This document shows positions 14,975-33,889 of a stretch of 36,280 nucleotides of DNA, piece after piece. The notes beneath the pieces are model-generated. The model was not told the origin of the DNA and made no database searches. It saw nothing but the letters and a program-made list of their open reading frames with translations. This stretch comes from Promethearchaeota archaeon (GTDB lineage: Archaea; Asgardarchaeota; Lokiarchaeia; Sigyniarchaeales; SOKP01), in assembly GCA_016839745.1 (NCBI GenBank), contig JAEOTS010000099.1:1-36280 (forward strand). The letters are read 5' to 3'. Made by a program: the position numbers and the translations under genes. Numbering within the stretch: the stretch's first letter is position 1; the number at the start of each line of letters is the position of its first letter.

Positions 14975-14989
14975 TTTGTTTTAATTCGA

Positions 14990-15826
14990 TCAATTTTTCT
15001 TAAATACATTCCAAAATTCCGATGGGATTTTCCCAATATCAGTTGGGAAAAATTTAATCGTATCGGTAGTAATATTGGGGTATCCATGAAATTTAGGGGC
15101 AATTGTTTTCATTAAATCCTCTGAATAATCGTGAAAAAATGCTTTGGGATTAATTTTATACACTTTACGTAAATACCAGCGAACAAGATAAACTACGGCA
15201 TCAACTAACTGAAGTCCATTATACACTTCTGAATCAACAATAAAAGGAAAATTAATTATCCGTTCAGGATATTCATCCCATCCGTGCCCAGTACCGGTTT
15301 CCATGAATTCAATGATTTGCTCTCGTTTCTCAACATCAGTTTTGATGTTCACAGAATCCATTACTAATAAACCTCGATCTTCTTTATTAGTACTATCAAA
15401 TTCAATATAGCGGTTAATTTTTTCAACTAATAGCTCAAACGCCCATTTTTCAACATTTTCTCTCCCTGAATTCTTAAAATCTTCTTTAACAATAACAGTG
15501 CAAATGATCTTGATATATAAGCGCGTTATAAAATCATAGACTTTTGATACAACTTTGAACCATTTCTCTACATCATCCTTTAAATTCTGATAGAGCTTTC
15601 TTCTCCCATTGATGTCATCCATGTGAATCTCAAATTTAGGTGGATATTTTTTAAGATCACTTTTACTTCTGACAATACTCCATATATCTTGTTTTAAAGT
15701 TTCACTTGCACTATGAAGAAAATTTAGCCCTAGATCTTTCATTATAACTGCAGCAAGTACATAGAATTTACTCTCCTTATCCTCAAGGTTCGGAGTTCCT
15801 GATTCATCAATAAATGCAAAGTACAT
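14990..15826 (-). CDS. DUF3800 family protein (RNase H-like fold)
   Basis: N-terminal FIDESG, EIH, LVMD and C-terminal DS..YNGLQLVD signature motifs. Confidence 0.88.
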   Translation of the reverse strand: MYFAFIDESGTPNLEDKESKFYVLAAVIMKDLGLNFLHSASETLKQDIWSIVRSKSDLKKYPPKFEIHMDDINGRRKLYQNLKDDVEKWFKVVSKVYDFITRLYIKIICTVIVKEDFKNSGRENVEKWAFELLVEKINRYIEFDSTNKEDRGLLVMDSVNIKTDVEKREQIIEFMETGTGHGWDEYPERIINFPFIVDSEVYNGLQLVDAVVYLVRWYLRKVYKINPKAFFHDYSEDLMKTIAPKFHGYPNITTDTIKFFPTDIGKIPSEFWNVFKKN

Positions 15827-15944
15827 AATTTATCCTTACCATTGTTATATAATTTGGATTCTCATGAATTTTAATGATGTATTTCCTTTAAACTTTTAAA
15901 AAAATCGAAAAAAAAATGGCAAGACTTCAGACCTTGGATGTAGA

Positions 15945-16142
15945 TTACCTTTCTTGATAAAATTTAAATAAAACTAAAAGGAAAAACATTCCTATAAATA
16001 GTACACCAATAAGAGTAATAGTAGAATAAATCTGCTGACTCTGATTAGGATTTAAGATTGCGACAACGGATAATAATAATAATCCCGCAATTAAAAAAAT
16101 CCATATACTATTTTTAAACTTAAAGATAATATCTACTGACAT
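15945..16142 (-). CDS. Small two-TM membrane protein
   Basis: 65 aa with two hydrophobic helices; starts 14 nt after the GIY-YIG stop; purine-rich GAGGGA upstream. Confidence 0.65.
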   Translation of the reverse strand: MSVDIIFKFKNSIWIFLIAGLLLLSVVAILNPNQSQQIYSTITLIGVLFIGMFFLLVLFKFYQER

Positions 16143-16156
16143 AATTCTTCAATCCC

Positions 16157-16426
16157 TCACTTATTTTCTTTATTATATTTTGGTTTATTATTAGATAATC
16201 TATTTTTTTCCACCTGTTTAGCTTTAGCTTTGGTTTTTGTAGGTGAAACCGACGCAGATGTGAAATGTTTGGTTTTATCATAATGATGTTGCTTAATCCG
16301 TTGGTTCAAGTTTTTAGTCATTCCAGTATAGACTGTCTTTCCTTGACGATTTTTAAGATTATATGCTCCTGCTGTTTTTGGTATTTCACTACGACCCTTT
16401 TTTGTATTTGAATAAGATTTTGTCAA
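16157..16426 (-). CDS. Stand-alone minimal GIY-YIG nuclease
   Basis: GAY...VYTG, R..QH, E...PKYN motifs; TTG start preceded by a GGAGG Shine-Dalgarno. Confidence 0.88.
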   Translation of the reverse strand: MTKSYSNTKKGRSEIPKTAGAYNLKNRQGKTVYTGMTKNLNQRIKQHHYDKTKHFTSASVSPTKTKAKAKQVEKNRLSNNKPKYNKENK

Positions 16427-16464
16427 CCCTAATACCTCCGTATTATTTTATTATTTATAAAAAA

Positions 16465-16513
16465 GATCATTTTTTCATATTTATAGATCGAAAAAAAATG
16501 ATCCATATTTATA
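16465..16513. promoter_or_regulatory. Candidate operator/divergent promoter: 11-bp inverted repeat plus a 10-bp direct repeat
   Basis: GATCATTTTTT (16465-16475) and AAAAAATGATC (16493-16503); CATATTTATA at 16476 and 16504; TATA-like boxes nearby. Confidence 0.45.
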
Positions 16514-16569
16514 TATATTCGTCTAGATTATATAAATACTCGCACGACAAAAAAAGGAGGTTTGCAGAA

Positions 16570-17424
16570 ATGATCAACGAAGAAAGAAAAGTTATGATAA
16601 TACCTATCGGTCTAGAGTTAGATCGAGCTATTTTTGGGATTTCCAAGTATAACCCCGATATCATCTATGTGATATACAGTAGAAAGGAAGAAGAAATTCT
16701 GATAGATAAAGTGGATGTCGAATCCAAAAGATTTATGGAACTCTTTGTTGAAAAGATTAGGGGATTGTGGAAATATGAAATATTAGAGACTGATGTAACT
16801 AATCTATCAAAATGCACTGATCTTCTAATGGAGATCTTCACTAAAGAATTACAAGAATCAGAAGATTGTGTTTTTTATATCAATATTTCAACGTCATCAA
16901 AGATCTTCTCTTTTTCATCTTTTTATCTCGCAGGAAAGTATAGTGGAAATGTATTACTTTTTTATGTGAAACCGGCCGAATATCTAATGGTTGAATTTAG
17001 CGCGAAATTTCAAGATTTAGTTTCTAAACTTAGAAATAGCGAAGATGTCGATATGGATTATCTAACTGAAACAGAAAAGATGATTGAAAGATACATAGAA
17101 CACGGTTGGACCTCTGGAACTTTCAGAATAATCGAAATCCCTTACTATAAAATATCAAAATATCCCGATTATGAAATAAATTTAATGGGAATTATGAATG
17201 ACAACAAAAATAAATATCCTGATGGTTTCACAATAGAAAATCTTTTAGAGCTAAATAGAGAGGTTCAAATAAAAAGCAATAAAATTAAATTAAATTATCA
17301 TCTCACGGAATTAGAAAGGCAAAGTCTTATCGAAAACCATCCAAAGAATCGGAAGAAACATGTCAAATTACAGAAGTCAGGCGAAATTTTTCTTGAAACA
17401 ATCGCTAAGTTGTTAGAAAATTAA
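16570..17424 (+). CDS. CARF-like (DUF6293/Csa3-type) domain plus C-terminal winged-HTH transcriptional regulator
   Basis: IIPIGLELDR, DIIYVI, YINISTSSKI, FYVKP then LNYHLTELERQSLI...KLQKSG. The ATG at 16570 follows GGAGG, so the ORF-track start at 16363 is over-extended. Confidence 0.78.
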   Translation: MINEERKVMIIPIGLELDRAIFGISKYNPDIIYVIYSRKEEEILIDKVDVESKRFMELFVEKIRGLWKYEILETDVTNLSKCTDLLMEIFTKELQESEDCVFYINISTSSKIFSFSSFYLAGKYSGNVLLFYVKPAEYLMVEFSAKFQDLVSKLRNSEDVDMDYLTETEKMIERYIEHGWTSGTFRIIEIPYYKISKYPDYEINLMGIMNDNKNKYPDGFTIENLLELNREVQIKSNKIKLNYHLTELERQSLIENHPKNRKKHVKLQKSGEIFLETIAKLLEN

Positions 17425-17940: not shown

Positions 17941-20721
17941 ATGACAGAATATAACCACCAAATAATTGAGAAAAAATGGCAAGAAAGGTGGGAAAAGGAT
18001 AAAATTTTCGAAGTGAGAGATGACAACTCAAAAGAGAAATATTATGTGCTTGAAATGTATCCCTACCCAAGTTCAGACCTCCATATGGGTCACCTTCGTA
18101 ATTATTCAATTGGCGACTCTTTTGCTCGATTCAAACGAATGAAAGGTTTTAATGTCCTATACCCAATGGGTTACGATAGCTACGGTCTACCCGCAGAAAA
18201 CGCAGCGATTGACCACGGAGAGGATCCTGAGGAGTGGACAAACTCTAATATGGCATCAATTCAAAAACAACAGAAACGAATCGGTCTTTCGTATGATTGG
18301 ACCCGTATGATCTATTCTCATGACCCTAATTATTACAAGTGGGACCAATGGTTTTTCCTAAAAATGTACGAAAAAGGTTTGGCTTACAGACAGGAAAGTT
18401 ACGTGAATTGGTGCCCAAAATGCGTAACTGTGCTAGCTAACGAACAGGTTCTAAGTGGCAAATGTTGGCGATGCAGTTCGGAGGTCGATCAAAAATTTCT
18501 GACTCAATGGTTTTTAAAAATCCGGGATTATGCCGAAGAACTTTTGGACGGTTTGAATACGGTTGACTGGCCTGAAAAAGTCAAAACAATGCAACGAAAT
18601 TGGATTGGAAGATCAGAAGGAACGATAATAAAATTCCCAATTGTAGGTGAAGAAAGAACCATCGATATATTTACCACTCGACCAGATACATTGTACGGCG
18701 TCACATTTATGGTATTTGCCCCCGAGCATCCTTGGGTTAAAAAATGGGTAGAAGGGACCAATTATGAATCCGATTTTCAAAACCTTTACGCAGAAACAAC
18801 TAAACAAAATAAATTTCAGAGAACTGATATCGATGTTGAGAAGAAAGGGATATTCATTGGAAAACACGCCATTAACCCGCTAACCAAAGAAGAGATACCT
18901 ATATATATTGGCAATTTTGTTATTTACGAATATGGTGCGGGGGCTGTAATGGCTGTGCCTGGACACGATCAACGGGATTTTGAATTTGCTAAGAAATACG
19001 ATATCCCAATAAAAGTAGTTATTCAACCGTTTGAATACGAACTAAATGCGGAAAAAATGACCAGAGCCTACGAAGAGGACGGAACTTTAGTAAACTCTGA
19101 TGAATTTGATGGTATGGAAAACCGATCCGCGATAAAAGCTATTTCTGAAAAACTTGCGTCAATCGATTTGGGACAGGAAACTGTGAATTACAAACTAAGA
19201 GATTGGCTCATATCCCGACAACGCTATTGGGGGTGCCCAATACCAATTATATACTGCGATAGCTGTGAAATTGTGCCCGTTCCTTATGAAAACCTACCTG
19301 TAGAATTACCTAAAGATGTAAAATTCACGGGAAAAGGAAATCCTTTGAAAACGAGTGAATCTTTTGTTAAAACCTCGTGCCCAAAATGTGGGAATCAAGC
19401 AAGACGGGAAACCGATACCATGGATACTTTCGTAGATAGTTCTTGGTATTTCTTCCGATATTGTGACCCAAATGAGGAAAACTTACCATACAAGAAGGAA
19501 ATTGCCGATTACTGGATGAATGTTGACCAGTATGTGGGTGGGATCGAACATTCGATTCTCCATTTAATGTACGCACGTTTCTTTACCCGAGTCGCTCGTG
19601 ATCTTGGACTTCAATCGTTTAACGAGCCCTTCCAGCGACTACTGACCCAAGGTATGGTTAATAAATCACATCCTTACTGTTCTACATGTGAAGCTTTTGC
19701 TATGAAAGCTGACATGACGAGTGAAAGCTGTAAAAGATGTGGAACTAAATATATTTTAAAAAGCGTTAAGATGAGTAAGAGTTACGGCAATACGATAGAT
19801 CCAATTGGGATGATGAACAAATACGGAGCAGACGCAGCTCGATTTTTTATTCTTTTTGGCGCGAGTCCTCAATCCGGTTTGGAATGGTCTGACGAGGGCA
19901 TTGGTTTTGCTTTTAAATTTATTAGAAACTTTTTTTACCTCCTAACAGAACCAATTCAAATTGAAAGGGAGGAACATACTTTAAGTGATCAGTTAATTCT
20001 TTTTAATTTGCATAAAACTATTAAACTTGTTTCAGAATATTATGAGAACATTGCCTTACGAGACGCAATTAATCATATAATCCAATTTACTTCAGAGCTT
20101 AGAAAATATAAAGAAAATAGCGGACAAAAGGAAGTTTTTAACGAGTGTGTCGAAAAATTACTATTGCTATTTCATCCAATCGCTCCACATGTCACAGAAG
20201 AATTGTGGGAGCTAAAGGGAAAAGCAGGATATGTTACTTTATCACCCTGGCCTTCATACGATGCTGATATTTTGACTCAAGAAAACGAATTTAAATGGAA
20301 ACTCATGAATAAGATAATAGATGATATTGATAGCATAAGACAAGCAACCAAAATTGGTAAACTGAACGAAATTACAATCATTGTAGCTGACGAGTGGAAA
20401 TTTAAGTTCTACGCACAACTGTTAGAGTTAATCGAGAAATCTACAAACCAAGGGGTCATCACAAAAGAACTGATGAAGCACGAAGAATACAAAATTCATA
20501 GTAAATTCGTGGTTCAAACGATAAAAAAAGTGTTGAACAACATAGGAAAATTTTCAAAAGTAACCCTTTTAGCAGGCGAAGAATTTCAATTCTTTGAGGA
20601 CATTACCTCGATTATTGAGAGACGATACGATTGTAAGGTCACGGTATTACTTGAAAAAAATTCCAACGAAACAAAAGCAATTCAAGCGCTACCCGGAAAA
20701 CCAGCTTTAATCATAAAATAA
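17941..20721 (+). CDS. leuS: Leucine--tRNA ligase
   Basis: YPYPS..LHMGH, editing-domain FTTRPDT and [35 protein letters not shown]. Confidence 0.98.
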
Positions 20722-20722
20722 T

Positions 20723-23700
20723 TCATTCTTCTTTTGTATTTTCTTCAGATTTCACATAAACAAAAGCGGTTCCGGAGCAATATCCAATTCTATCTAAAAA
20801 TATTTTATATGTTTCATTAGTCGTTTTAGAAGAGTTAATTTTTTTTATTTTAGTAAAGGTATTATTTCGAAAAACTCTCTCCAATTTTTTAATTAGTGAT
20901 GTTGTTATATTTTCATTTTTTAACCCGTCAAGAGTTTTTAGTAAGAGAACTTCTGATAGGTTTGTTTTTCTTTTTATTTGAGTTGCTATGTGCGTTGCGT
21001 TTTCAGGGACAATTCCTTTATTACTTAAATCTCTCAGTGAAATACCGTGAGTTTTTTGAAGCTCTAAATTTAATTTTCTTATAAGAGCGTGTGTATTTGC
21101 AGCAGTTTTAATATCGCTGGTTGTATAATCGATTTCGGGTAAGTTGTCAAAGATATGTTTTAATTTCTCAAAATTAGAAGAACCTCGAATTACCATTGAA
21201 TAAAGTTTCTTTGAGTTTGGCCTAGTAGAAGGTGGATCATGTACACTAACGCTCATGATAACTCCCAATTTTTTCATAAGCAGATTTAAACCAAACACTA
21301 ATCTTCTTGAAGTAGTCTCAAAATTAAGATCAAAAGTACCTCCCTTAGTTCGGTAATCTCTTTCTGATCCATCACCTTTAAAATAGCTTGAAATAAAACC
21401 TTTCTCACAATCTGGCGTTGAATTATACAAAAACGATGGTAGTTCTTTCAAATATGAGTATGCATGCTTTAAACCTAAACCCTGAGTAAATATTGATTTA
21501 GCTAGCTTAGTTTTTGTCCTTAATTCATAACATTCATTATAAATACCGTTTTCACATTTAGGACATATATTTTGATTACCATTTTCAATTGTTTTGGACC
21601 CACAATTTTTACACTCTTTAACTCTTCTTGCTATTATTTGAAACTCTAGCCCAAATACTTCTTTAACTATTTTTTGAAGCTTTTGAATATATTCATAATC
21701 CGTGCTAACAGAAATTACTGTCGCGGGTTGATATTTGGATGGAAAAGTTCCTTCAGCTTCATATTGACCTAATATCGCTCCTAACTTTGCATTTTTTTTA
21801 ACGAAGCGATACGCTTTCTTATCGAATTGTTCGATGTATTGAACATTGTTTTTAGAAATCATCATCCCACAATTTATTAAATCTAAGGGTTCGTTATTTG
21901 GGTTGATTTTTAAAATTCTTGGCATTAAGATTGGCATTCCAATCTTTAGCTCACTTCCTTTAATTTCAATTATGTTACAGTCATTGTCTATAGTGAAAAG
22001 AAACTGGTCTGGAGTAATTATTACTGATCCATGGTTACAAATAATTTCTAAGGATTCCTGAGGTTTTGTTTTCATAAATCGACGAATATTCACTTTTTCT
22101 GGTTGTAGTTTGTTTGAAATCCCAAGAATTTGAAACTCCTCCATGTTTTTTAAAAATTCTGGATTTTCGAGATCTTTAATGAAAACACATTGATATTGAT
22201 TAGTTTTTGTTTTGAACAACAAGATATATTCATGCGATTGGATTTTCGGATCAAGTGGTAAATCTTCTCGAAAATATTTTCTTTTATACATTTTCATCCA
22301 TCCTTCATAAGATAAATCCGCACCAAAATATTTAGCATATTTATTATTCTGGAAGAACTTTTTTATATGACGCCGAATTGTCGTCTCTCCATAAGTATAG
22401 CCTTGATGATTTTCTAAATTTTTTCTAATAGCAGAGATGGATCCTCCTACTTCTCGATCCTGATAAATTTTTATCCATTTAATAACATCCTCATCGGTGG
22501 CTGTTTGCGTGCTCTTACGATTTCCATGTTTTACTTTAAATTCTTCATAAATCAAGCTATTCTGCTTAAAATATTTTTTCACAAAATATGTCATATCATT
22601 AAATTGATTCGGAATACCAATTTTTCGATTTAAGTGTTTATTGAAATCCCGAATAAAATTAAAAACCTTTGGCCACGATCCGCCATAATACTTTAGTTTA
22701 AATAATTCGATCCAAAATTCTATATCTCCATCAGAATATTTTGAAGAAATCGTATGCTTGTTCTTTTTCTGCAAGTAGGTTTTATCTTGAACGTCAAATA
22801 TAATCTTCTTGAATTTACTTCCAAGTTGTTCAATTATTTTAACTAAATCTCTTGGCGTAAAATTTAGAATTCTAAGAGTTAATTGGTTCTTGCTTGCTTT
22901 CAAAATTCGATTTAATTGCTTTTTTGGAGGGAATTGGGTAAGGAAATGGTTGAGTAATTGCTTCAGTTGCGATTTTTCCAATCTTTGGTGCGATAAATAG
23001 CGTTTAATTGCTCTTATATTGGTGAATAATATTATGTGTTCTGGATTTTTTTCGTAAAGAGTTTTAATTAGTCCTTTTAGTTCTACTTTTTCTTCTTGAG
23101 AGAGTAGCTCAGTTTGTTCTTTTTTGTATAATTCTTGGAACCTTGCTGTTAGTTCGTCGAGTTCGTTATAATCATCCACGATTTCTGTTAGATCCTCCTT
23201 CATTTGGGGGTGTAGTCTTTCTCCTGCATCTTCTTTTACCCAGTTTGAGAGATATTCTAGCCATTCTTTTTCTTTTTCTTGTTCGATGGTATGTTCGTTA
23301 GATTCCGTTTCGTTGGGAGCATCTTGCTCGATTTCTGTTATCTGCTCGAGAGTCTCTTCTAATTCTTGTTGAGGGTCATCTATTTCCCTACGTTTAAATT
23401 CATTAATTTCTAATTCTTCATTTAAATCTTCTAATTCAAGTTCTTCTTGATAAACGAACACGGTTTCAATCTCGTTGCTATCCTGTTCCTGAATCCTTTC
23501 AATTTCCTCTTCTGGATATGCCTCTATCTCCATTTCTTCTAGATCGTTCCCTACTTGTTCTTCTTCGTGCTTCACCTCTCGAATATCCAGATTTTCTTCA
23601 TTAAGTTCTTCGTCAATTTTAGTGCGTTCGAGATCGAACTCTGTAAATTCTTTTGTAGTCTTTTGATGATTTACATCTTCTTCGCTACTGGGAAAATTAT

Positions 23701-24517
23701 CCTCAGTAGAGTAAATTTGTGGATTAACCTCTTTAAATTGTTCTTGTTCTATTGTTTCTTCGTTTAATGCTGGCTCATGGTCGGGATCAATCAAGTCATC
23801 CCGATTCTCTTGTTCTAAATCATTTTCAGCGGCTATAGGTTCTGAGTCTTGTTCCTCACTACCAGTTTTATTTAATTCAGCTTGTTGTTGTTCGAGTTGA
23901 ATTCTTTCTTTCTCTTGTTCTAAAAATTGTTCCAATTCAGAAGGCTCATTTTCCAGAATGTCTGCTTTATTTTCTTCTCCTTGGTTTTCCCGTTCCTTTT
24001 CTAACTGTGCTTGAGCGTATTCCCTAAGATAGGCAATCATTTGGTTTTCCGTGATTAAAATAGTGTTCATAGTTTGAGCATATTGATTTTCGAATTCTCC
24101 GGAGTATCCTTCTTGTCCATAATTATCTCCACGCTCGTAGGGATCATATTGCTCAACATCACCTTCCAAATCGTTTTGGTCAGATTCTTGCTCAGATTCT
24201 TCCTCAGGGTCGTTATGCTCGAACTCATCCCGCTCTTCATTTCCTTCAGTTGCGTCACTAACATCAAGATCAGTTTGTTCAGATTCTTTCCAATCGATCT
24301 CATTCCAAATAGATTCTTGCTCTTCATCACTATTCACTTCGCTCCAATCGATATCACTCCACTTGTCATCGCCACCTGTTTCTAGTTCATCATCACTACT
24401 TTGTTCTTCATTATCATCGCTGTCTGATTCTTGTTCATCATCACTAATTTCGTCTTCATCACTCTTTTTCTCTTCTGATTTAAATTCCTCATCCGTATTC
24501 TCTCTCTCAAATTCCAT
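20723..24517 (-). CDS. 1264-aa multidomain protein: acidic low-complexity N-terminus, helical domain, tandem HTH-like repeats, C-terminal intein-derived Hint plus double LAGLIDADG endonuclease with a Zn ribbon
   Basis: About 410 D/E-rich residues; intein block B-like SVIITPDQFLF and ELKIGMPILMPR; LGQYEAEG and ISSYFKGDG; TTSRRL; CKNC...CPKC. Confidence 0.8.
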   Translation of the reverse strand: MEFERENTDEEFKSEEKKSDEDEISDDEQESDSDDNEEQSSDDELETGGDDKWSDIDWSEVNSDEEQESIWNEIDWKESEQTDLDVSDATEGNEERDEFEHNDPEEESEQESDQNDLEGDVEQYDPYERGDNYGQEGYSGEFENQYAQTMNTILITENQMIAYLREYAQAQLEKERENQGEENKADILENEPSELEQFLEQEKERIQLEQQQAELNKTGSEEQDSEPIAAENDLEQENRDDLIDPDHEPALNEETIEQEQFKEVNPQIYSTEDNFPSSEEDVNHQKTTKEFTEFDLERTKIDEELNEENLDIREVKHEEEQVGNDLEEMEIEAYPEEEIERIQEQDSNEIETVFVYQEELELEDLNEELEINEFKRREIDDPQQELEETLEQITEIEQDAPNETESNEHTIEQEKEKEWLEYLSNWVKEDAGERLHPQMKEDLTEIVDDYNELDELTARFQELYKKEQTELLSQEEKVELKGLIKTLYEKNPEHIILFTNIRAIKRYLSHQRLEKSQLKQLLNHFLTQFPPKKQLNRILKASKNQLTLRILNFTPRDLVKIIEQLGSKFKKIIFDVQDKTYLQKKNKHTISSKYSDGDIEFWIELFKLKYYGGSWPKVFNFIRDFNKHLNRKIGIPNQFNDMTYFVKKYFKQNSLIYEEFKVKHGNRKSTQTATDEDVIKWIKIYQDREVGGSISAIRKNLENHQGYTYGETTIRRHIKKFFQNNKYAKYFGADLSYEGWMKMYKRKYFREDLPLDPKIQSHEYILLFKTKTNQYQCVFIKDLENPEFLKNMEEFQILGISNKLQPEKVNIRRFMKTKPQESLEIICNHGSVIITPDQFLFTIDNDCNIIEIKGSELKIGMPILMPRILKINPNNEPLDLINCGMMISKNNVQYIEQFDKKAYRFVKKNAKLGAILGQYEAEGTFPSKYQPATVISVSTDYEYIQKLQKIVKEVFGLEFQIIARRVKECKNCGSKTIENGNQNICPKCENGIYNECYELRTKTKLAKSIFTQGLGLKHAYSYLKELPSFLYNSTPDCEKGFISSYFKGDGSERDYRTKGGTFDLNFETTSRRLVFGLNLLMKKLGVIMSVSVHDPPSTRPNSKKLYSMVIRGSSNFEKLKHIFDNLPEIDYTTSDIKTAANTHALIRKLNLELQKTHGISLRDLSNKGIVPENATHIATQIKRKTNLSEVLLLKTLDGLKNENITTSLIKKLERVFRNNTFTKIKKINSSKTTNETYKIFLDRIGYCSGTAFVYVKSEENTKEE

Positions 24518-24539
24518 TTACATCTCAAAACCTGATGAT

Positions 24540-26486
24540 TTAAGAGTTGTAATCTTCCGCCGTTTTCATCAAATAGCGTTCAGTATTCGTCATAATTAAC
24601 GCGTATCTGCCTGGTAAATTTAGGAGCATTTCTCTCTCGTTCATAGAACCAGTGAATATTTGGGGGCTTGGATATCCTAATTTGAACAAGATCTTCTGTC
24701 TTGCAGAATCGACGGCCGAAGGAAGTAATGAATGCGGTTTTTGATCCGCCTTAATGATTCCTAAACCTTTTTTTCTACTTTCATTAGCGAACCTGCTAAA
24801 AGAAGAGTTGGTTTTATTTTTCATTATGAATTCCGGAGATTCAGGGTGTTTATCACCTGGTTCTCCTAACAATCGGTGTGCCTCATCTAAAACTAGGATA
24901 TATTTCAGCATATTGGATTTTTCACGATCGATGGGGATTAAAACATCAATCATGTGTAAAATCATCATTCCTATTAAGTGTTGTTCTTCCTCCGTGCATT
25001 TGGTAAAATCAAGCAATACGGTCTCTCCTTCCATCCATTTATTAAACCAATTTGGAATATTCTTCCATTCTCCATCAAGGAGATTGAGCGTATTCATTAA
25101 ATCTTCCCGATAAAACAGTTCGTTAATCCGTCTTTTAAAAGTAGCTCGAACATGTTGTTTATATTCCGGTTCCCACGTTTTTGCTTTCATATTCTCATCA
25201 ACGCAATCAAAAAATTCCTTAAGATTGTCTGGAAATTTGTGAAATTTATTATAACAGATTCTAAGTGTCTCAGAAAATATAGTTGGTCCAATATGTTTTA
25301 ATCCTAAACAGGAAGCAAAGACATTACTCGTTGTTTTGATTGAAATCATAGTTCTTTCAGAAGGAGTAATATAGGGTATTCTCAATTTTTCAGAAGGAAA
25401 CTTAAAAACTTCAGCCATCGGATAATCATCCTCAAGGAATGATGTTGCGAAGTTAATGATTAATATACCCACATCTGGTCGTTTTGATATTATCTGATGT
25501 AGAATTAATTTAATCAATGTTGATTTCCCGGTTCCTTGCAACCCAAAAATGTCTAAATGAGTTACAAGACTATCCAATCCAATCAAACCTATCTCAGTGC
25601 TTAAAACACCTTTGTTCATCTTATCTCCGATATACAGAAAATTAGGATCGTTTTTAGAAAGCTCTAAATTAAAAGTGTTCCGGTTTTCCAAAATGGGTGG
25701 TTTTTTTAGATCCATTCCTTGGGGGATCTCGAAATCAATCATGTTGGGATTAATAAAGTTAGGCATCATTTCGATTGGTAGGTGTCCATATGTTGGTTTT
25801 TCGGGGAACACATCCGAAGTTAGAATTTTCCTCCAAAAAACGGGAGACCGTTCTTGGAAGGTTGCCTTCTGATACGGTGGTATAGAAATATCAGAAATGA
25901 AGTATCTTAAGACCGCTCTTTCGTTTATTCTTTGTTGTCTAGCATCCATAGAGAATTTAGGATTTGCATTTAAGCTTATAAATATCCTAATCATATACTT
26001 CAGTGGATCCGGATTTATGTGTAAATTGTCCTTTTTCCATAATATAAATAGATGTGCATCTAATTTCCTCTGTGGTGTTTTGTAATAATTGATTATTTTT
26101 CTAAGCAAGTGTATACGTATCGGAGGATTAGAGGGTAAGATAAGCTCGAAAATTTTTCTGTTGATATCTAAAAACCCCAAGTAAATTGGATCGACACTCA
26201 CACGTCCATCCAATCCCCTATACTTCTCCTGTAAATTATATAACAAAGCGACTCCAAATTCATTGGCTAATTCATAATCTTCACTAAAAAGAAAAAAATC
26301 CCAACAAAAACTACTTCCTAACTTGAATTCTACACCATAAGTTAAATTTTCTCCAAAAGGGTCATATAACCATGATACATCCATTATTTGCTTTACTTCA
26401 TTATCATGAAATCTCATTAATTCTTCTTGTTCACATGGTAAAGCTTGAGTTATACTGATTTTTGATCGATATCCTATAAGTTCCAT
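24540..26486 (-). CDS. HerA/FtsK/VirB4-superfamily ATPase (DUF87-like) with an unknown N-terminal domain
   Basis: HLDIFGLQGTGKST (Walker A), LVLDEAH (Walker B), ESRKKG...ADQKP (arginine finger and Gln motif). Confidence 0.88.
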   Translation of the reverse strand: MELIGYRSKISITQALPCEQEELMRFHDNEVKQIMDVSWLYDPFGENLTYGVEFKLGSSFCWDFFLFSEDYELANEFGVALLYNLQEKYRGLDGRVSVDPIYLGFLDINRKIFELILPSNPPIRIHLLRKIINYYKTPQRKLDAHLFILWKKDNLHINPDPLKYMIRIFISLNANPKFSMDARQQRINERAVLRYFISDISIPPYQKATFQERSPVFWRKILTSDVFPEKPTYGHLPIEMMPNFINPNMIDFEIPQGMDLKKPPILENRNTFNLELSKNDPNFLYIGDKMNKGVLSTEIGLIGLDSLVTHLDIFGLQGTGKSTLIKLILHQIISKRPDVGILIINFATSFLEDDYPMAEVFKFPSEKLRIPYITPSERTMISIKTTSNVFASCLGLKHIGPTIFSETLRICYNKFHKFPDNLKEFFDCVDENMKAKTWEPEYKQHVRATFKRRINELFYREDLMNTLNLLDGEWKNIPNWFNKWMEGETVLLDFTKCTEEEQHLIGMMILHMIDVLIPIDREKSNMLKYILVLDEAHRLLGEPGDKHPESPEFIMKNKTNSSFSRFANESRKKGLGIIKADQKPHSLLPSAVDSARQKILFKLGYPSPQIFTGSMNEREMLLNLPGRYALIMTNTERYLMKTAEDYNS

Positions 26487-26490
26487 TGAG

Positions 26491-27249
26491 TCACCATTGA
26501 GCTTCTTCTCTTGTTTTTATGGGTGTAACCCGCCTTCGAGTCAGAAATTTTGTTTTTGTTTTTTTTGTAATAAAACCTTGTTTTCTTCTCAGATGATGGA
26601 GATAAACAGTTTTTACTCCCATAGTAGCGGCTTTAAAACCATAGTAAGCGACGAGAATTGCTATGTAAGTTACAATTTCGTGAAATACTTGAATTTGATA
26701 TGAAGTGATAACTAACCAGACGATAGCCACCGATAATAGTAATAAAGTTATTTGATAAAGAGAGTATCTCCAATCGAAATGTATCGTTCCAACAATGGAT
26801 ACTAAGTCCGCAAACGAGGGTGCTGCGCTTAAAACAAGCGATATCATTATAAAGATGTAAATGTAAAAGATAACGACATCCAGACAGGGATTGAGCAAGT
26901 GTTCCCATAACATAAAAAAGAGCCAGAAGGAGATGTATAGTGGGGCTAATCCAATTAACACCGCTTGTAGAAATGTCAACTTCACGTAGTCCGTTAAATC
27001 GACTCTTCCACCGTATTTTAAGCCGAAATTGGCATCTGCATCAGCGCGCTTTACAATCTTAATGCTCCTTATGCGAGTGTTTGTGAGAACGCACATTAAG
27101 GCGTGGGAGAGTTCGTGGATTAGGATCCCTACTACAGCTAGGACTTGAAAAAATTTATCAATTGGGTTAGGTGCCCACTTCAATAGAACATAGGACAGGA
27201 CAACTGACGCCAGTGCAAATAAAACCATAAATACGATCTCTTCGAACAT
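26491..27249 (-). CDS. Membrane-embedded HExxH zinc metalloprotease (M50-like)
   Basis: LIHELSHA, GG.V, LAP, APSFAD motifs among several TM helices. The likely start is the ATG at 27249 rather than 27333. Confidence 0.78.
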   Translation of the reverse strand: MFEEIVFMVLFALASVVLSYVLLKWAPNPIDKFFQVLAVVGILIHELSHALMCVLTNTRIRSIKIVKRADADANFGLKYGGRVDLTDYVKLTFLQAVLIGLAPLYISFWLFFMLWEHLLNPCLDVVIFYIYIFIMISLVLSAAPSFADLVSIVGTIHFDWRYSLYQITLLLLSVAIVWLVITSYQIQVFHEIVTYIAILVAYYGFKAATMGVKTVYLHHLRRKQGFITKKTKTKFLTRRRVTPIKTREEAQW

Positions 27250-27400
27250 TGTAATAAACCCTAATAGTGTTTGTTCTTTACAAAGATATAATTTCGATAT
27301 ATATAAAAGGAAAATTTGAGGAATTTTCACCATAATTATATATTTATATTAAGTTGATTATTATAAAAATAGAATAAAAGACAAATTTATACGCCGCACC

Positions 27401-30400
27401 ATGGACGAGTTTATAGTCAACGACTTTCTCTCTTTGAGATTAGAAGGTGGTAAGACCAATATATACATCAATGGCAAACGTTTTAATCAGTGCAAGTTTT
27501 TAATGTTAGATATTCCAATAGAGGAGACCGCGAGATTCGACGAAATTGATTCTATAGACGAGGTTGCTGACATTTTAGGTTGGAAAGATCGAGGTCAAGA
27601 AGGAGTTAAATACGAAATTGACCCAGAAACGGAATTTTGGGGGCACTGTTCAAACCTACAAGCATGGTATGAAAACGATTACGATACACGATTACTCCAT
27701 AGGAGTATTGCATTTTCTTTACTGAAGAAACTTTCTGAAGTTGGAGATCCCCTTGCTAAAAAAGTGTTCGCAGATGAGATTGCAAAACGTTTCGAGAGTG
27801 AATATCCTAATGTAATTGTGTTCATATTGACTACAGGATTATTAAAGATCTTGAATAATGAAGAACGGGGAGTTCTGATAGAACAGAACATTCCAATTAT
27901 TTTAACTGCAATAGAAAACCTTACAGTTAGTGCAAAACCTAAAGCATTTGTTCACTTAGTCGATACAATTAGAAATACCGTGGTAACAAGCAAAACTTTA
28001 TCTCAGATTGAAGCGAAATTTCTGATTATTTTAGAATCTATAGATAAAGTAGATGAATCTATCAATCTTGAAGTGTTTTCTAACTTATTAAAAATAGCAA
28101 TAGAAACAGAGTGGATAGAAAAATATTTTTCTACGTTCTTGGAGGTTATCGATATTTTGCCTAGTTATCAAAAGAGTAAAGCATTTGTTCATTTGGTTGA
28201 TGCAATTAAAAATACCGATTTAATGAGTAAACATTTATCTCAAATTGAAGCAGAATTTCTGATTATCTTGGAGTCTCTGGATAAATTAGCTGGATCTCTC
28301 AACCATGATGCATTTTCTAACTTATTAAAAATAGCAATAGACACATCTTGGATAGAAAAATATTTTTCTTCCTTCTTAGATTGTTTAGCTACTACATCTC
28401 TTTCTACCTTTATCAGTTTTAAGAAATACAGTGAGTTTTCTGATCTACTTGAAGCGGCTAAGGAAAAAGGATGGATAGAAAGATATTTCAATTCCTTCTT
28501 GGATGTTATAGAGATATTTTCTATTCCCTACAAACTTGAGGCTATTTGTAGTTTGATTTATGCTATAAAAGGTACTAAGTTATTAAATGAAAAATATTCT
28601 CAAATTGAAACCGTATTCTTGGCTATCGTAGAGTCTAAAAATGAATTTATATTTTATGAAACCGAAGAAGAAGAAGAGTCTTTTTTTAATCTCCTTAAAA
28701 TAGCAGAGGAAATAGGATGGATTGATAAACATTTCTCTGTACTCTTGGAGAATCTAAATCTATCGTCAAATCTTGAATTTTCTGCATTGCTTGAAGTAGC
28801 AGACCAAAAAGGATGGGTAGAAGAATATCTTTATGATTTCTTAGAACTTATTCAAAAAATATCTATTTCTTCCCGTTTTCGTGCGTTTTCGGAAATATTC
28901 TATGCAGCTCGAAATAAATATTATTCTCAAAGTGAAACCATTTTCTTGACTATTTTAGAATCAATAAATCAATACGAGGATGAGGATAGGGTAGTTCCTA
29001 CCCTTCTAGATATGGCAAAAGAATTGGGATGGAAAGATGAATATCTCTATGCATTCATACAGAATATTGATAAACTCTTTGGTGAGATAAAATATGACTT
29101 ATTTAAGGGTTTATTAGAAAAACTTAAGGGAACTAAATTATTGGAAAATAATTTCCATCTATTCTTGGAGATTATAGATAATCTCTCAACTAAAATTAAA
29201 TATGACTATTTTAACAGTATGCTTAGGGAACTCAAGAGAACAAAATTATTGGAAAAGAAATTCCTTTTTATCCTGGAGATAGTTAACGAAAGGTTTGGCA
29301 AAGACAAGTATCGTGCATTTAACCAATTAATCACTTCAATTAAAAACACTGAAATAATGACAACATACTTTTCTCAAATTGAGACATATTTTCATAGTTT
29401 GGCTGGGTCTATCGATAGATTACCTGACAAAGAGAAGTATATTGCTATTTATTCTTTAAGCAATTCAATCAGAGAAACTGAGTTATTTGAAAATTTTATT
29501 TCTCAAAATGAAACTCTAATTTTTACTCTATTGAATGGTATTGATAAATTATGCGCTTGCGACGATTATGATTGCGATAATTATCACATGTCAGATGCTT
29601 ATTCCAGTTTGATTGCCACAATCCGAGATACTGAATTAATGAGAAAATATTTTTCTGCTTTTTTAGATATTCTAAGTAAAATTAAAGGTAGACGCCTACC
29701 TTATTATCCTTTTTTAGAACTACTTAGAGTAGCAGAAGAAATGGGATTACTAGAAAAACATTTTCATGATTTCTTAAAGACTTTAAATAATTTACCTGAT
29801 GATGCCCGTTATCGTTCGTTTTCAGAGTTACTTAATGTAGCAAAAAAAGACGGAAAAATTGAAAGCCGTTTCCATGAGTTTTTGAAGATTGTAGATAATT
29901 TACCTAACAAAGAAAAAAGTCGTGCGCTTTCTGACTTGATCGATTCGATAAAAGGTACCTTGTCAATGAGCAAACTATATCCTTATCTTGAAGAGTGTTT
30001 TCTTAACTTCTTGGAGATTATACATAAAAACACTGACACTTTTTTTGACTTAATTAAAATTTTAGAGGAAACGGGTTTAAAAAAAGATTTTATCCCTACT
30101 TTGTTGGATTTTACATTTAAATTACCTCCTGATTGGTCTAAAGATAATAACTTTTCAGCTATACTTAATCTAGTAAAGGGAACAGGAACGATAAGCGAAA
30201 ATCTGCATTCTATCTTGGAAAATTTAGAAAGATTAAACGATTGGGATAGGATTAACGTTTTTTCAGACCTAATTAAAGTTTTAAGCGAAAATGGATTAAT
30301 GGAAGAATTTTTTGCTACCATCATGGAAACAGTAGTCAAACTAGATGATGTGGCCAAGTATAGTGTTTATTCTAAACTTATTAATTTAATCAAAGAAACC

Positions 30401-31492
30401 GAGTTAATTAACAATTATAATTCCCAAATTAAGGCTCACTTTCTCGTATTACTTAAAAATATGGATGAATTACATGATAAAGACAAATTTCAAGCTTTAA
30501 ATTATCTATTTCGGATTGCAATCGAAATAGGTTGGATTGAAGAACACTTTTCTAGCTTGTTAGAGTATTACAAAACATTTGCTGGTCTATACCAATATAA
30601 CTCATTTTCCAAATTGATTAATTTTTTCATTGAAACAAAGCTATTTAAAAAATTTAAATCCCAAATTGGAGAACAATTTCTCATTCTATTGGAAAATTTA
30701 GAAGAACTGCCTGTTAACGACAAGTCTAGTGCTTTTTACACACTATTTGAAGTAGCGAGGAAAACAGGATGGTTGGAAGAATATTTCTCTGAATTCTTGA
30801 AACAGGACTCCTGGTTTTATGATCTGATTTCAACATTAAAGGCTTATGACAAAAATTATTATTTGCTATTAGACAAGCATTATTCTCAAATTGAACCGTT
30901 ATTCCTAGCAAAATTGAATAGAACAGATTATTTATTTGATAATCATGGATATCCCCTTCTTTCCTATTTGCTCGATTTATTCAAAAATACTAAATTAGTT
31001 AAAAACTATTATTCCCAAATTGAAGCTAAGATTCCAATTCTACTTGATAATATAGACACTTTACATGGGTATAACCAGTATAGTGGTTTTTTGGACCTTC
31101 TTGGAAGAACAAGAGAAATGGGATGGATAGAAAAATATTTCCTTAATTTCTTGAAAGCTTTAGATAAATTACAAAATGAAGGTACAGAATACAAATATAA
31201 CGCTTTTAATGCTCTGTTAAAATCAGTCAAGAGTACCAAGTTGATGAGCAAATATTATTCTCAAATTGCTCTTCAATTTTTTTCACTATTGAATAGTATT
31301 GAAAAATTATGTGATTGTAATAATGTCGGAGGGGAAGAATGTTATGAGTATCACCAACAAGATGCCTTTTACAATCTACGCGATGTAATCAAGGATACAG
31401 AATTGGAAAATGATCCTGCTTTTAAAAAATGGAAGAAACTGCAAAGCGAGAATGCTCTTAAGAAATGGGAAGAACATAAAAGTAAATATTAG
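27401..31492 (+). CDS. 1363-aa alpha-helical repeat (HEAT/ARM-like solenoid) protein with a Lokiarchaeia-type N-terminal domain
   Basis: N-terminal FNQCKFL...IDSIDE...EFWGHCSNLQAWYENDYDTRLLH...GDPLAKKVF, then many ~36-43-aa repeats (AFxxLLxxA..GWIEKYF..FL and L..K.YSQIE..F). Confidence 0.8.
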   Translation: MDEFIVNDFLSLRLEGGKTNIYINGKRFNQCKFLMLDIPIEETARFDEIDSIDEVADILGWKDRGQEGVKYEIDPETEFWGHCSNLQAWYENDYDTRLLHRSIAFSLLKKLSEVGDPLAKKVFADEIAKRFESEYPNVIVFILTTGLLKILNNEERGVLIEQNIPIILTAIENLTVSAKPKAFVHLVDTIRNTVVTSKTLSQIEAKFLIILESIDKVDESINLEVFSNLLKIAIETEWIEKYFSTFLEVIDILPSYQKSKAFVHLVDAIKNTDLMSKHLSQIEAEFLIILESLDKLAGSLNHDAFSNLLKIAIDTSWIEKYFSSFLDCLATTSLSTFISFKKYSEFSDLLEAAKEKGWIERYFNSFLDVIEIFSIPYKLEAICSLIYAIKGTKLLNEKYSQIETVFLAIVESKNEFIFYETEEEEESFFNLLKIAEEIGWIDKHFSVLLENLNLSSNLEFSALLEVADQKGWVEEYLYDFLELIQKISISSRFRAFSEIFYAARNKYYSQSETIFLTILESINQYEDEDRVVPTLLDMAKELGWKDEYLYAFIQNIDKLFGEIKYDLFKGLLEKLKGTKLLENNFHLFLEIIDNLSTKIKYDYFNSMLRELKRTKLLEKKFLFILEIVNERFGKDKYRAFNQLITSIKNTEIMTTYFSQIETYFHSLAGSIDRLPDKEKYIAIYSLSNSIRETELFENFISQNETLIFTLLNGIDKLCACDDYDCDNYHMSDAYSSLIATIRDTELMRKYFSAFLDILSKIKGRRLPYYPFLELLRVAEEMGLLEKHFHDFLKTLNNLPDDARYRSFSELLNVAKKDGKIESRFHEFLKIVDNLPNKEKSRALSDLIDSIKGTLSMSKLYPYLEECFLNFLEIIHKNTDTFFDLIKILEETGLKKDFIPTLLDFTFKLPPDWSKDNNFSAILNLVKGTGTISENLHSILENLERLNDWDRINVFSDLIKVLSENGLMEEFFATIMETVVKLDDVAKYSVYSKLINLIKETELINNYNSQIKAHFLVLLKNMDELHDKDKFQALNYLFRIAIEIGWIEEHFSSLLEYYKTFAGLYQYNSFSKLINFFIETKLFKKFKSQIGEQFLILLENLEELPVNDKSSAFYTLFEVARKTGWLEEYFSEFLKQDSWFYDLISTLKAYDKNYYLLLDKHYSQIEPLFLAKLNRTDYLFDNHGYPLLSYLLDLFKNTKLVKNYYSQIEAKIPILLDNIDTLHGYNQYSGFLDLLGRTREMGWIEKYFLNFLKALDKLQNEGTEYKYNAFNALLKSVKSTKLMSKYYSQIALQFFSLLNSIEKLCDCNNVGGEECYEYHQQDAFYNLRDVIKDTELENDPAFKKWKKLQSENALKKWEEHKSKY
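27941..28377 (+). repeat. Intragenic tandem duplication with a 237-nt (79-aa) period
   Basis: AAAGCATTTGTTCA at 27941 and 28178; TTTTCTAACTTATTAAAAATAGCAATAGA and TGGATAGAAAAATATTTTTCT are shared by both copies. Confidence 0.85.
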
Positions 31493-32385
31493 GTAACCCT
31501 AAAAAATCCCCTCTCTTCTAAAAATTCTACCTTTTTTCTGAATCCTTTCACATTATCTTTTATCCCGAGACGATTGAACAATTTATTCTGAATTGACTTC
31601 TGAAGCGAGCTCTGACTAATATTGAACTCTTTACAAATCGATTTCATAGTGCGGTCTTCACACTTAGAGAGGATAATTACAATTCCTGTTACTAAGCCTG
31701 CTATTACGTCGTCTTTTGAGTCTCTTATTAAGTTCCAGAATTTTTTAAGCAACTTTATTGATTGATTGTAGACTCTTCCATAACCAATAACGCCTCCAAT
31801 TCTAGTGCAAATATACTTATATCGATCTCTAACTTTGTAAGCTGACCAGAATCTTTCCATGTGGATTCGAAATGCGTTGAATTCTTTCTTCGATATCTCT
31901 GAGTTTTCAAAAAGTGTTTTAATATCAATAACAATGTTTAATTCTTTAAAGTAAAAATAAATAATGAAAGGAATCAGCTTTTTAGGATTCTGAAATTTGG
32001 AACTTGCTGGAAATTGAGTTCGAACATCTTCAAATTTTTTTAGAATTATTCGAATCTCTTTATTAGAACGCCCCAATTTCTCTAACATGGTTTTAGTTAG
32101 AGTGAAGGCAACCATCATTGTTTTGTTGTTATATGTTTTAATAGAGTCTAGCTTGCTTAGGTATAGGATTTTCATTTTATTTGTAGACATCTTTCTTTCT
32201 CCCTCAGTACCCATTGTAGTCATATTTAATGAATAATTTTGTTCTTGAATCTTATTTCTTTCAATCCTCGTTAATTCTTGGTCAGTTCCGCAACTAGTAC
32301 AAACACTTCCATAAGTTGTTTCTCTAATATGAGCTGATCCACAGTAATAACACAGTACAATGGATTCGTTATCTGTAAATTCCAT
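31489..32385 (-). CDS. Divergent TFB/TFIIB-like protein (Zn ribbon plus cyclin-like repeats)
   Basis: CYYCGS...VCTSCG ribbon, then helical repeats with L...IIY and a C-terminal ICKEFNISQSSL HTH. The likely start is the ATG at 32385. Confidence 0.68.
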   Translation of the reverse strand: MEFTDNESIVLCYYCGSAHIRETTYGSVCTSCGTDQELTRIERNKIQEQNYSLNMTTMGTEGERKMSTNKMKILYLSKLDSIKTYNNKTMMVAFTLTKTMLEKLGRSNKEIRIILKKFEDVRTQFPASSKFQNPKKLIPFIIYFYFKELNIVIDIKTLFENSEISKKEFNAFRIHMERFWSAYKVRDRYKYICTRIGGVIGYGRVYNQSIKLLKKFWNLIRDSKDDVIAGLVTGIVIILSKCEDRTMKSICKEFNISQSSLQKSIQNKLFNRLGIKDNVKGFRKKVEFLEERGFFRVT

Positions 32386-32849: not shown

Positions 32850-33506
32850 ATGTTAGAAAAGTTGAATAAAAAAAGTATTAAATACAAGTTGAAAGAGGGG
32901 ACACTAGAAAATTTAAGGAGAACCTTAGGATTAGAAGGTGAGGGGACAAGGGAATCACCAATAATAATTGACGATTTGGGCGATGTAGCCCTAAGATTAT
33001 CGTTAAGAACTAAAGGCGTGTTTCTCATTTTAAGAAATCTTGCCATCAGTAAACTGTCGATTATTAACTCTCAGAATATCACTGTTGAGAATTGTTTTAT
33101 AGGTAACATAGAACTATCAGTTTGCCGTAATCTAATTTTTACAAATAATACGATTTTATCGATTCGACAGGTTCTATGTAAAAACTGTCTCTTTGAAAAT
33201 AATACCATAATGCAGAAAGAATATAATAGGTTAATCCATAATGCCCACGAAAGGAGGACATTCATCTCTGTATGGATTTGTCTATTCGTTGGGATATTGT
33301 ATACAGCCTTCGCGGTTATTTCTATTGTGTTTTTGTACGTGACTTTAGATACCGTTGTTTTTCTGGTTTCAGGGGTTCTTCTAGCGATTGCGATGTTATA
33401 TATGTTGTACCTGCGCAGAAAGGTTAATAAAATGCCTCAAAATAAATATATTAACTTTAAACTTCAAGAGAAAGACGTCCTAGTATCTTCTTCTTATTTA
33501 CAGTAA
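32850..33506 (+). CDS. Short parallel beta-helix-like domain plus two C-terminal TM helices
   Basis: GEGTRESPIII cap motif; NITVENC, NLIFTNN and NCLFENN repeats; two hydrophobic helices. Confidence 0.65.
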   Translation: MLEKLNKKSIKYKLKEGTLENLRRTLGLEGEGTRESPIIIDDLGDVALRLSLRTKGVFLILRNLAISKLSIINSQNITVENCFIGNIELSVCRNLIFTNNTILSIRQVLCKNCLFENNTIMQKEYNRLIHNAHERRTFISVWICLFVGILYTAFAVISIVFLYVTLDTVVFLVSGVLLAIAMLYMLYLRRKVNKMPQNKYINFKLQEKDVLVSSSYLQ

Positions 33507-33529
33507 TCTCATATAAAGAGGTAGAATTT

Positions 33530-33889
33530 GTGAGTCGTAGAAAAAAGTCCGGTAATGGTAGGATTTCTAAACTATCTTTATTTCTTATAGTGATTTCCCT
33601 CTTTGTTTTGCTTGTCTTTCCTTTTTTTGGGGATTTCATAAGAGGTACGATTAGTATGGGTTTAGCCCCCCTTCAGAGCGTAGGATCGACTCTTCTGTGG
33701 ATTGGCATACTAGTAGTGGTGGTGGGTGTTGGCATGATGCTTCCGCTAGGCGAAGGCAAGTCATTTGGTAGTAAGCGTTCGTTAAAACTTGTATTAGTGG
33801 GTATCATATTAATTGTGATAGGATTGTTCCTTGAAAATCCCCTAAGCCTGTTCTCCGAGGGCGGTGGGGCCAGTTTAGGTTATCATTAA
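33530..33889 (+). CDS. Small membrane protein, possibly VirB2/TrbC-like propilin
   Basis: Basic plus hydrophobic leader, then a Gly-rich helical hairpin with a basic loop (KSFGSKRSLK); GAGGT upstream of the GTG start. Confidence 0.55.
   Translation: MSRRKKSGNGRISKLSLFLIVISLFVLLVFPFFGDFIRGTISMGLAPLQSVGSTLLWIGILVVVVGVGMMLPLGEGKSFGSKRSLKLVLVGIILIVIGLFLENPLSLFSEGGGASLGYH

Follow-up and report, generated by a model that had tools for sequence, protein, structure and literature searches.

A candidate integrase-less homing-type island with a HerA/VirB4-type ATPase and a giant nuclease-tipped protein beside leuS in Promethearchaeota

The HO endonuclease of yeast is an intein-derived LAGLIDADG enzyme, and the seg and mob genes of phage T4 are free-standing homing endonuclease genes. 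Here, we analyzed a 36,280-nt stretch of DNA (hereafter the window; contig C68, JAEOTS010000099.1) from a 3.5-Mb Promethearchaeota genome of about 31% G+C, in which a three-gene operon beside leuS encodes a site-2 protease (S2P)-like membrane protein (P0001), a HerA/VirB4-type ATPase (P0002) and a giant protein with an acidic leader and a homing-type nuclease tip (P0003). We read the three genes as the core of an integrase-less homing-type mobile island of Loki-type (Promethearchaeota) Asgard archaea, a reading on which our confidence is evenly balanced. As in T4 seg/mob and HO, the nuclease belongs to a homing family, and its intein splicing is lost as in HO; like free-standing homing genes, its gene adjoins a conserved host gene, close genomes differ in whether they have it, and its tip type goes with the site. 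In contrast to these enzymes, the nuclease is fused to an acidic leader and stalk of about 550 residues, and the island is a multigene unit of about 10 kb with a HerA/VirB4-type ATPase and an S2P-like protease, which are predicted to be co-transcribed.

Several ATPase systems also resemble the locus. HerA-NurA, HerA-Sir2, HerA-DUF4297, DndFGH/DptH and MAD7-MAD8, the latter with a described role in the ATPase-nuclease module of MADS (PMC13662399), all place a HerA-clade fold beside a nuclease-bearing partner; unlike in these pairs, NurA, Sir2 and DUF4297 are missing here, the N-domain differs, the ATPase appears to be membrane-anchored, and the partner carries repeated acidic-aromatic motifs. 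VirB4 of type IV secretion and CedB of the archaeal Ced DNA import system have a similar fold, and, as with VirB3-VirB4, the ATPase here is accompanied by a small polytopic membrane protein or an N-terminal transmembrane (TM) fusion, but VirB6/CedA, a coupling protein, a relaxase and a verified pilin are lacking, and the membrane partner is an HExxH-bearing S2P-like protein. The type VII secretion system (T7SS), with EssC/YueA and LXG toxins, shares an FtsK/HerA-superfamily ATPase, Hint modules in the cargo and a conserved N-terminal recognition region on variable C-terminal cargo, although here there is a single ATPase domain, WXG partners and immunity genes are missing, and the Hint module is catalytically dead. 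Among Asgard elements, the aloposons of Heimdallarchaeia occupy tRNA sites and encode twin proteins of 3000-6000 aa and a MinD/ParA ATPase, and HeimM2, also of Heimdallarchaeia, carries a homing-endonuclease-like gene inserted beside a conserved gene (PMC8813620). Our locus resembles them as an Asgard mobile element with giant genes (aloposons) or a site-adjacent homing-endonuclease-like gene (HeimM2), but both are without a HerA-like ATPase, an S2P-like protein and an acidic leader. The module was described nowhere in the literature that we searched, in which the papers cover other Asgard elements.

The giant protein and its chromosomal sites

P0003 is 1264 aa long, and its first ~415 residues consist of 30-50% Asp and Glu and carry the motifs WSDIDW and WNEIDW, spaced 18 residues apart. 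The helical stalk that follows (residues 416-545) directly matched the partner proteins of loci L031, L030 and L036 by BLAST (23-38% identity over ~110-137 residues), while the partners of L022, L027, L078, L084 and L086 matched the stalk region of L031/L022 and not P0003 directly. Residues 550-757 gave a weak Pfam match to the helix-turn-helix (HTH) family HTH_12. Downstream of it, LAGLIDADG_3 (PF14528) was matched with an E-value of 8.7e-11 (42.4 bits against a cut-off of 22.5), and Intein_splicing (PF14890) spanned residues 776-1237 at 33 bits, just below its cut-off of 35.8. The Hint module covers residues ~758-1256, with the LAGLIDADG domain nested inside; over 491 residues it shares 33% identity with a genuine NrdD intein, and it shows the Hint fold blocks A, B, F and G. 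Both the acidic N-terminus and the C-terminal LAGLIDADG module of the initial annotation were found, but the tip is the whole intein module and not the nuclease domain by itself.

The residues for splicing are gone from this module: K758 stands at the Ser1 position, block B reads TPDQ, and there is neither a terminal His-Asn nor a +1 nucleophile. The module ends in ...VYVK, followed by eight residues and the stop codon, which leaves no C-extein, and the relatives in L079 and L080 are likewise without splicing residues. Each of the two LAGLIDADG motifs carries a predicted catalytic acidic residue, E922 and D1049, and both are invariant in relatives of 35-38% identity (alignment A2). Given that the splicing residues are lost while the LAGLIDADG acidic residues are invariant, the tip is, as judged from its sequence, a domesticated, splicing-dead intein nuclease, HO-like in logic. 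An active intein or self-cleaving Hint was rejected, since the nucleophiles and the terminal His-Asn are missing, and C777 was rejected as intein residue 1, since the alignment to the true NrdD intein places residue 1 at K758. The LAGLIDADG domain of the leuS-linked tips also contains a CxxC...CxxC zinc ribbon, which neither the nrdD-linked relatives nor the true NrdD intein contain.

Residues 550-1262 of P0003 are 64% identical to a free-standing protein of 754 aa (P0059), and the tip module also occurs as a fusion to N-termini of four further kinds, so that five different N-termini were observed in all. The tip adjoins the 3' end of leuS in all eight carriers examined (the window, G009, L092, L093, the P0051 contig, L111, L112 and L113), down to 47% identity. 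Moreover, of 17 genomes of the genus, 15 have an empty leuS site, with a conserved 285-aa gene directly after leuS; in the window's genome this gene was found on another contig (C127), and the island reaches the contig end. Giant proteins at other loci adjoin other housekeeping genes. At L079 (8517-12772) and L080 (7504-12298), the tip of the partner protein is 42% identical to the genuine NrdD intein, and the end of the partner gene overlaps the 3' end of an intein-less nrdD by 4 nt. The predicted nuclease ancestry at these two loci thus matches the neighbouring gene, nrdD.

A sister element was found in the ribosomal protein gene rpS8 of genome G004. DNA alignment placed it, as a 9.8-kb insertion (L022 5056-14893), within the 5' end of rpS8; a 66-bp stretch of this end is duplicated at both insertion borders, and the element is missing from rpL5-rpS8-rpL6 of five genomes, including the window's own genome. 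It carries genes for a giant protein, an ATPase, an S2P-like protein, a Zn-ribbon/HTH protein and two membrane proteins, of which only the giant protein was scanned with Pfam and the others were named by BLAST likeness to the window genes. No integrase, transposase or relaxase was matched in the giant protein, the sole gene of the insertion that was scanned. For its tip, the ten best named ESM clusters were all GIY-YIG+HTH homing enzymes (0.87-0.89), the motifs GIVY...IQIG...R...E were recognized by eye, and the Pfam E-value was 0.28. The tip is probably of the GIY-YIG type, as far as its sequence can tell, and we take this as a lead only. In the window, where the Pfam scan covered most open reading frames (ORFs) of at least 100 aa, no integrase, relaxase, transposase, NurA, Mre11 or Rad50 was found among the scanned ORFs, in agreement with the initial annotation, which had seen no nurA, mre11, rad50, relaxase or integrase.

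The ATPase, its acidic partners and the membrane protease

The ATPase and the acidic-leader gene were found side by side at many Asgard loci. The gene order [Zn-ribbon/HTH]-[S2P-like]-[ATPase]-[giant] was repeated in L022, L024, L025, L031 and L072, where the gene of the putative Zn-ribbon/HTH regulator adjoins the protease gene. In a second locus type, a membrane protein of ~1280 aa is encoded upstream of the ATPase (L027, L030, L032, L033 and L089), and in a third, 3-6 TM helices are fused to the ATPase itself (six loci: L026, L079-L082 and L087). A quick ATPase tree gave six clades; an acidic partner is encoded at about 24 of the 36 loci, and one of these clades lacks it altogether. The pattern scan of the genome contigs gave only four loci. 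Across the homologues, the leader and the central helical domain are kept and the C-termini vary, which is the pattern that the initial annotation had proposed to look for, and neither outcome that it had named as refuting (genes without synteny, or an ordinary repair HerA unlinked to such partners) was observed.

We compared the leaders of partner proteins between ATPase clades. WxxIDW at an exact 18-residue period was present in all eight partners of window-clade ATPases, with any C-terminus, and in none of the 12 partners of other clades, which carry other acidic-aromatic tandem motifs (FDPND, YDPFSL, DFEPI, DDLPEIF and QWPDGDW). Taken together with the tip carriers, these results show that the leader follows the ATPase clade and the tip follows the chromosomal site. 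Pfam gave no matches for most of the other giant proteins. The first ~150 residues of the leaders in L078, L088, L031 and L027 contain NPF-, DPF- or DPW-like cores (FNPND, YNPFE, FDPND and YDPFSL), which recall eukaryotic endocytic short linear motifs by resemblance only.

P0002 matched Pfam DUF87 (PF01935) at 25.3 bits against a cut-off of 23.2. The Walker A (G315-T323) and Walker B (D534/E535) motifs are conserved in 33 homologues, among which G315, G320, K321 and E535 are invariant, confirming the P-loop ATPase with intact Walker motifs that had been annotated. In the AlphaFold2 (AF2) model (predicted local distance difference test, pLDDT, 80.7), residues 260-648 match HerA/VirB4/DndH folds, with VIA Z-scores of 29.4 for DndH-C, 26.8 for VirB4, 24-26 for defence and repair HerA and 22.4 for TrwB. 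A structural assignment to HerA, VirB4 or DndH was abandoned, as these scores were tied. Profile A1 matched SsoHerA in the PDB at 2.4e-6, and the best library match was PADLOC mad8 (7.7e-16), followed by HerA models, all of them partial. The NCBIfam equivalogs VirB4_plasma and CedD scored 14 bits against a cut-off of 590 and 15 against 600, respectively. No VirB3/VirB6 or CedA partner families were found among the scanned window neighbours, and no NurA, Mre11 or Rad50 was found by Pfam next to the ATPase in these neighbours or in the sister loci examined. By its modelled fold, this HerA/VirB4-type ATPase is probably a hexamer.

The N-domain (residues 1-260) gave no fold match in searches with the whole P0002 model, and in the comparison with the HAS barrel only two strands before the P-loop overlaid the N-region of HerA. 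An exhaustive search of 1.84 billion representatives found this domain in only 49 clusters, always at the start of proteins of ~630-720 aa or after an extension of 150-250 residues carrying TM segments. All named ATPase homologues are from Asgard archaea (Promethearchaeota, Odin- and Thorarchaeota), and no relatives were found on viral contigs or plasmids, bar one weak E. coli match. The ATPase was present in 8 of 24 genomes of the genus, 31 of 68 of the family and 36 of 301 of the phylum, frequently at contig ends and often in several copies together with decayed fragments that carry stop codons. Its absence from most genomes of the genus makes the distribution patchy, in contrast to what would be expected of a repair HerA.

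The first gene of the operon had been annotated as an HExxH membrane protease, and the motif and the predicted membrane helices held up. P0001 (252 aa) has five predicted TM helices, and H45, E46, H49, P144 and D148 are invariant in nine orthologues (39-62% identity), with D148 in an invariant A-x-P-S-x-x-D motif. The arrangement is that of site-2 proteases, with HExxH in a TM helix and a distal Asp in a second TM motif. Pfam M50B matched seven of the nine members and M50 six, all below the gathering threshold (best E-value 6.3e-6), and the named ESM neighbours were M50B or DUF3267 zincins. Among 48,161 chains compared with the AF2 model (pLDDT 66.9), the four best fold matches were SpoIVFB, two RseP structures and the M. 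jannaschii S2P (Z 6.7-7.6). P0001 is thus a probable minimal S2P-like intramembrane metalloprotease on the basis of motifs and model. Close orthologues (at least 40% identity) were found only in genomes that also have the ATPase, and almost every genome of the genus has a paralogue of 28-33% identity. S2P-like genes occur with ATPases of four clades. Homology of the S2P-like protein with the TM domains fused to other ATPases was rejected (hhalign probability 0.4). In one ATPase clade, the S2P-like gene is replaced by the gene of the conserved ~1280-aa protein, which has 2-4 predicted TM helices and no Pfam domain (for example, L027 5721-9545 and L030 9327-13172; also L032, L033 and L089).

Candidate readings of the locus

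We propose that the giant protein joins two parts, an acidic WxxIDW leader with its helical stalk, which co-varies with the ATPase clade, and a site-linked homing-type endonuclease made up of the HTH region and the splicing-dead LAGLIDADG intein. The nuclease would cleave alleles that lack the element, at the 3' end of leuS or close to it, and repair templated by the occupied copy would bring the island in, that is, homing by gene conversion; leuS would then be the host gene that marks the insertion site and the candidate target of the nuclease. The S2P-like protein, or the fused TM helices in other clades, may tether the ATPase to the membrane, and the ATPase N-domain, a candidate docking site for the leader repeats, may bind the repeated motifs. 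The ATPase could then thread, unfold, deliver or gate the nuclease, or pump DNA, and the protease may release the giant protein. On this reading, there would be a family of mobile islands in Loki-type Asgard archaea that dispense with integrases and settle next to or within essential genes, among them leuS, nrdD and rpS8, by means of exchangeable homing nucleases, some of them recycled from inteins. The islands would bring along a giant acidic protein together with a motor ATPase and an intramembrane protease. The acidic-aromatic repeats and the N-domain of the ATPase would also be a tractable pair for studying how HerA/VirB4-type motors recognize their partners.

A further possibility, which we regard as doubtful, is that a membrane-anchored hexamer threads the polyanionic, DNA-like leader and thereby exports the homing nuclease or the element DNA, or hands it over, to other cells or genome copies. 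If true, one integrase-less element would combine horizontal transfer with site-specific homing. Mobile elements of this sort would form a new class, and their machinery for transfer or secretion would be of a new archaeal kind.

Several points weigh against a homing-type island. The far border of the island lies outside the window, as the contig ends first, and the window holds no second or duplicated leuS end; a replacement end was looked for and rejected, as no second leuS fragment was present, and likewise none of nrdD in L079 and L080. In the leuS trees, the occupied genomes come together on a long stem with the 3' part, and also, weakly, with the 5' part. Vertical descent of a variable hotspot is therefore compatible with both trees. 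Defence-like genes flank the locus, with CARF, TOPRIM and DUF3800 here and PycTM and MT-A70 in relatives, and the GIY-YIG call in G004 is weak. Moreover, since the tip occurs free-standing, homing, if real, needs no ATPase and does not by itself account for the operon.

The same flanking genes are the starting point for an alternative that we consider unlikely, namely an ATPase-nuclease defence system in a defence island beside leuS, with the ATPase sensing foreign DNA or loading onto it and licensing the nuclease-tipped partner, and with the acidic leader acting as an autoinhibitory DNA mimic. It is consistent with the patchy distribution, with the best PADLOC match to mad8 of the MADS module followed by defence HerA models, and with structural neighbours that include DndH, HerA-Sir2 and HerA-DUF4297. 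However, no complete known system was matched by PADLOC, LAGLIDADG and GIY-YIG homing enzymes cut long specific sites and would be poor general effectors, and membrane anchoring is unusual for HerA defence complexes. The sister copy inside a ribosomal-protein operon with a target duplication and the correlation of the tip with its host site (8/8) also argue against it.

Variable C-termini behind a leader motif that co-varies with the ATPase clade would also be expected if a dedicated membrane ATPase exported polymorphic nuclease toxins through their acidic leaders and the protease processed them, in a T7SS/LXG-like manner. The membrane linkage of the ATPases fits this proposal, as do the Hint domains, which are known processing modules of T7SS polymorphic toxins (PMC3482391). 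We nevertheless find it distinctly improbable. There is no immunity gene downstream, where leuS abuts the stop codon and housekeeping genes follow the other giants, and no spare toxin cassettes were seen; the Hint nucleophile is absent, which should make self-cleavage impossible; the tips are homing-type nucleases (dead-intein LAGLIDADG and probable GIY-YIG); the same tip occurs without leader or ATPase at the same locus; and the sister copy forms a discrete unit, inserted with duplication of its target. The initial annotation had proposed an undescribed Asgard translocation or conflict system of this polymorphic-toxin-like kind. The syntenic, membrane-linked module, for which we found no published description, stands from that proposal, but its polymorphic-toxin part is not supported, given the missing immunity gene, the homing-type tips and the ATPase-free tip at the same site.

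Very unlikely, in our view, is a minimal Ced- or conjugation-like DNA transfer module, in which the ATPase and small membrane proteins would carry DNA through the membrane with the nuclease-tipped protein as a relaxase-like pilot; this could coexist with homing. VirB4 and TrwB are among the best fold matches of the ATPase, CedD is matched weakly, membrane partners or TM fusions are present, and small TM proteins lie inside the G004 insertion. On the other hand, no VirB6/CedA, VirD4, relaxase domain or verified pilin was found in the scanned window ORFs, plasmid or viral contigs yielded no relatives, and relatives of 50% identity occur without adjacent membrane genes. An ordinary chromosomal repair HerA that neighbours the other two genes by chance is hardly credible: its DUF87/HerA central domain passes the Pfam cut-off, but no NurA, Mre11 or Rad50 was found among the scanned neighbours, the ATPase is absent from most genomes of the genus, the N-domain is family-specific, and the synteny with its partners is conserved.

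Gene layout and neighbouring genes

The window ORFs of the operon are three co-oriented minus-strand ORFs (26491-27333, 24540-26486 and 20723-24517) with a spacing of 4 nt (26487-26490) and then 22 nt (24518-24539), the spacing first annotated. We placed the start of the first gene at 27249 (M29 of its ORF), in agreement with the initial annotation, because the orthologues begin there and a TATA-like box lies ~45 nt upstream of this ATG. The features of the island and of leuS are collected in Table 1.

Table 1. Positions of the operon features and neighbouring genes in the window.
Feature	Position	Strand	Remarks
Probable S2P/M50-like polytopic membrane zinc protease (P0001)	26491..27249	-	252 aa, 5 predicted TM
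HExxH codons	27103-27117	-	protease gene
Candidate third ligand D148	26806-26808	-	protease gene
ATPase (P0002) N-terminal alpha/beta domain	25707..26486	-	residues 1-260, family-specific
HerA/VirB4/DndH-type P-loop ATPase domain	24540..25706	-	residues 261-648
Walker A	25518-25544	-	ATPase gene
Walker B	24882-24887	-	ATPase gene
Acidic, probably disordered leader of giant protein (P0003)	23273..24517	-	residues 1-415
WxxIDW motifs	24344-24361, 24290-24307	-	leader of giant protein
Helical stalk domain of giant protein	22883..23272	-	residues 416-545; BLAST to partner proteins
Basic HTH-like region of giant protein	22247..22870	-	residues 550-757; start of the part also found free-standing
Splicing-dead intein (Hint) module with nested LAGLIDADG endonuclease	20750..22246	-	Pfam and NrdD intein alignment
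Predicted catalytic E922	21752-21754	-	giant gene
Predicted catalytic D1049	21371-21373	-	giant gene
Zn ribbon insert	21554-21613	-	giant gene
leuS (leucyl-tRNA synthetase, LeuRS)	17941..20721	+	Pfam; convergent with giant gene, stops 1 nt apart
1363-aa helical-repeat protein	27401..31492	+	divergent from operon; probably same island
Zn-ribbon + HTH-like putative regulator	31489..32385	-	298 aa from M30; protease-gene neighbour in five sister loci
Two membrane proteins	32850..33889	+	218 aa with C-terminal TM; 119 aa with 3 TM

The N-terminal ~150 residues of the 1363-aa repeat protein are 54% and 34% identical to shorter proteins in L089 and L030, respectively, whose genes adjoin the upstream gene of the ~1280-aa membrane protein. 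As this N-domain recurs beside the giant membrane protein at both loci, the 1363-aa protein gene is probably part of the island. The 218-aa and 119-aa membrane proteins have homologues within the 9.8-kb insertion of G004 (L022 13274-14333) as well as near the ATPases of L029 and L090. The identification of a 327-aa neighbour as transcription factor B (TFB) was not confirmed, since no TFIIB/cyclin signal was obtained in the Pfam or PDB profile search.

Other observations concern leuS and its surroundings. In L092, positions 1-1146 encode a second, diverged leuS fragment (residues 537-910, 55% identity), which lies beyond a 6.6-kb island from the full leuS and could be a displaced or replacement gene end. 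In three genomes, an in-frame stop close to codon 80 breaks leuS (L107, L109 and L110; G024, G006 and G023), and in G009 (L094) there are three stops; recoding, pseudogenization or assembly errors could each account for this. In the CARF/DUF3800 cassette (window 13052-17424), the TOPRIM-like gene of 640 aa is 74% identical to a gene of L111 (6336-8258). In L111, L112 and the P0051 contig, the homologue is located between the dead-intein nuclease gene and leuS, and in the window the gene lies across leuS from this position, on the opposite strand. This varied placement indicates that the leuS neighbourhood is a rearranging hotspot. Further away, window positions 3874-6257 and 7707-12938 are housekeeping blocks syntenic with L092 and L093, which contain genes for MoxR AAA+/DUF58-VWA, CofD, a CofE-nitroreductase fusion, two radical-SAM proteins and LplA.

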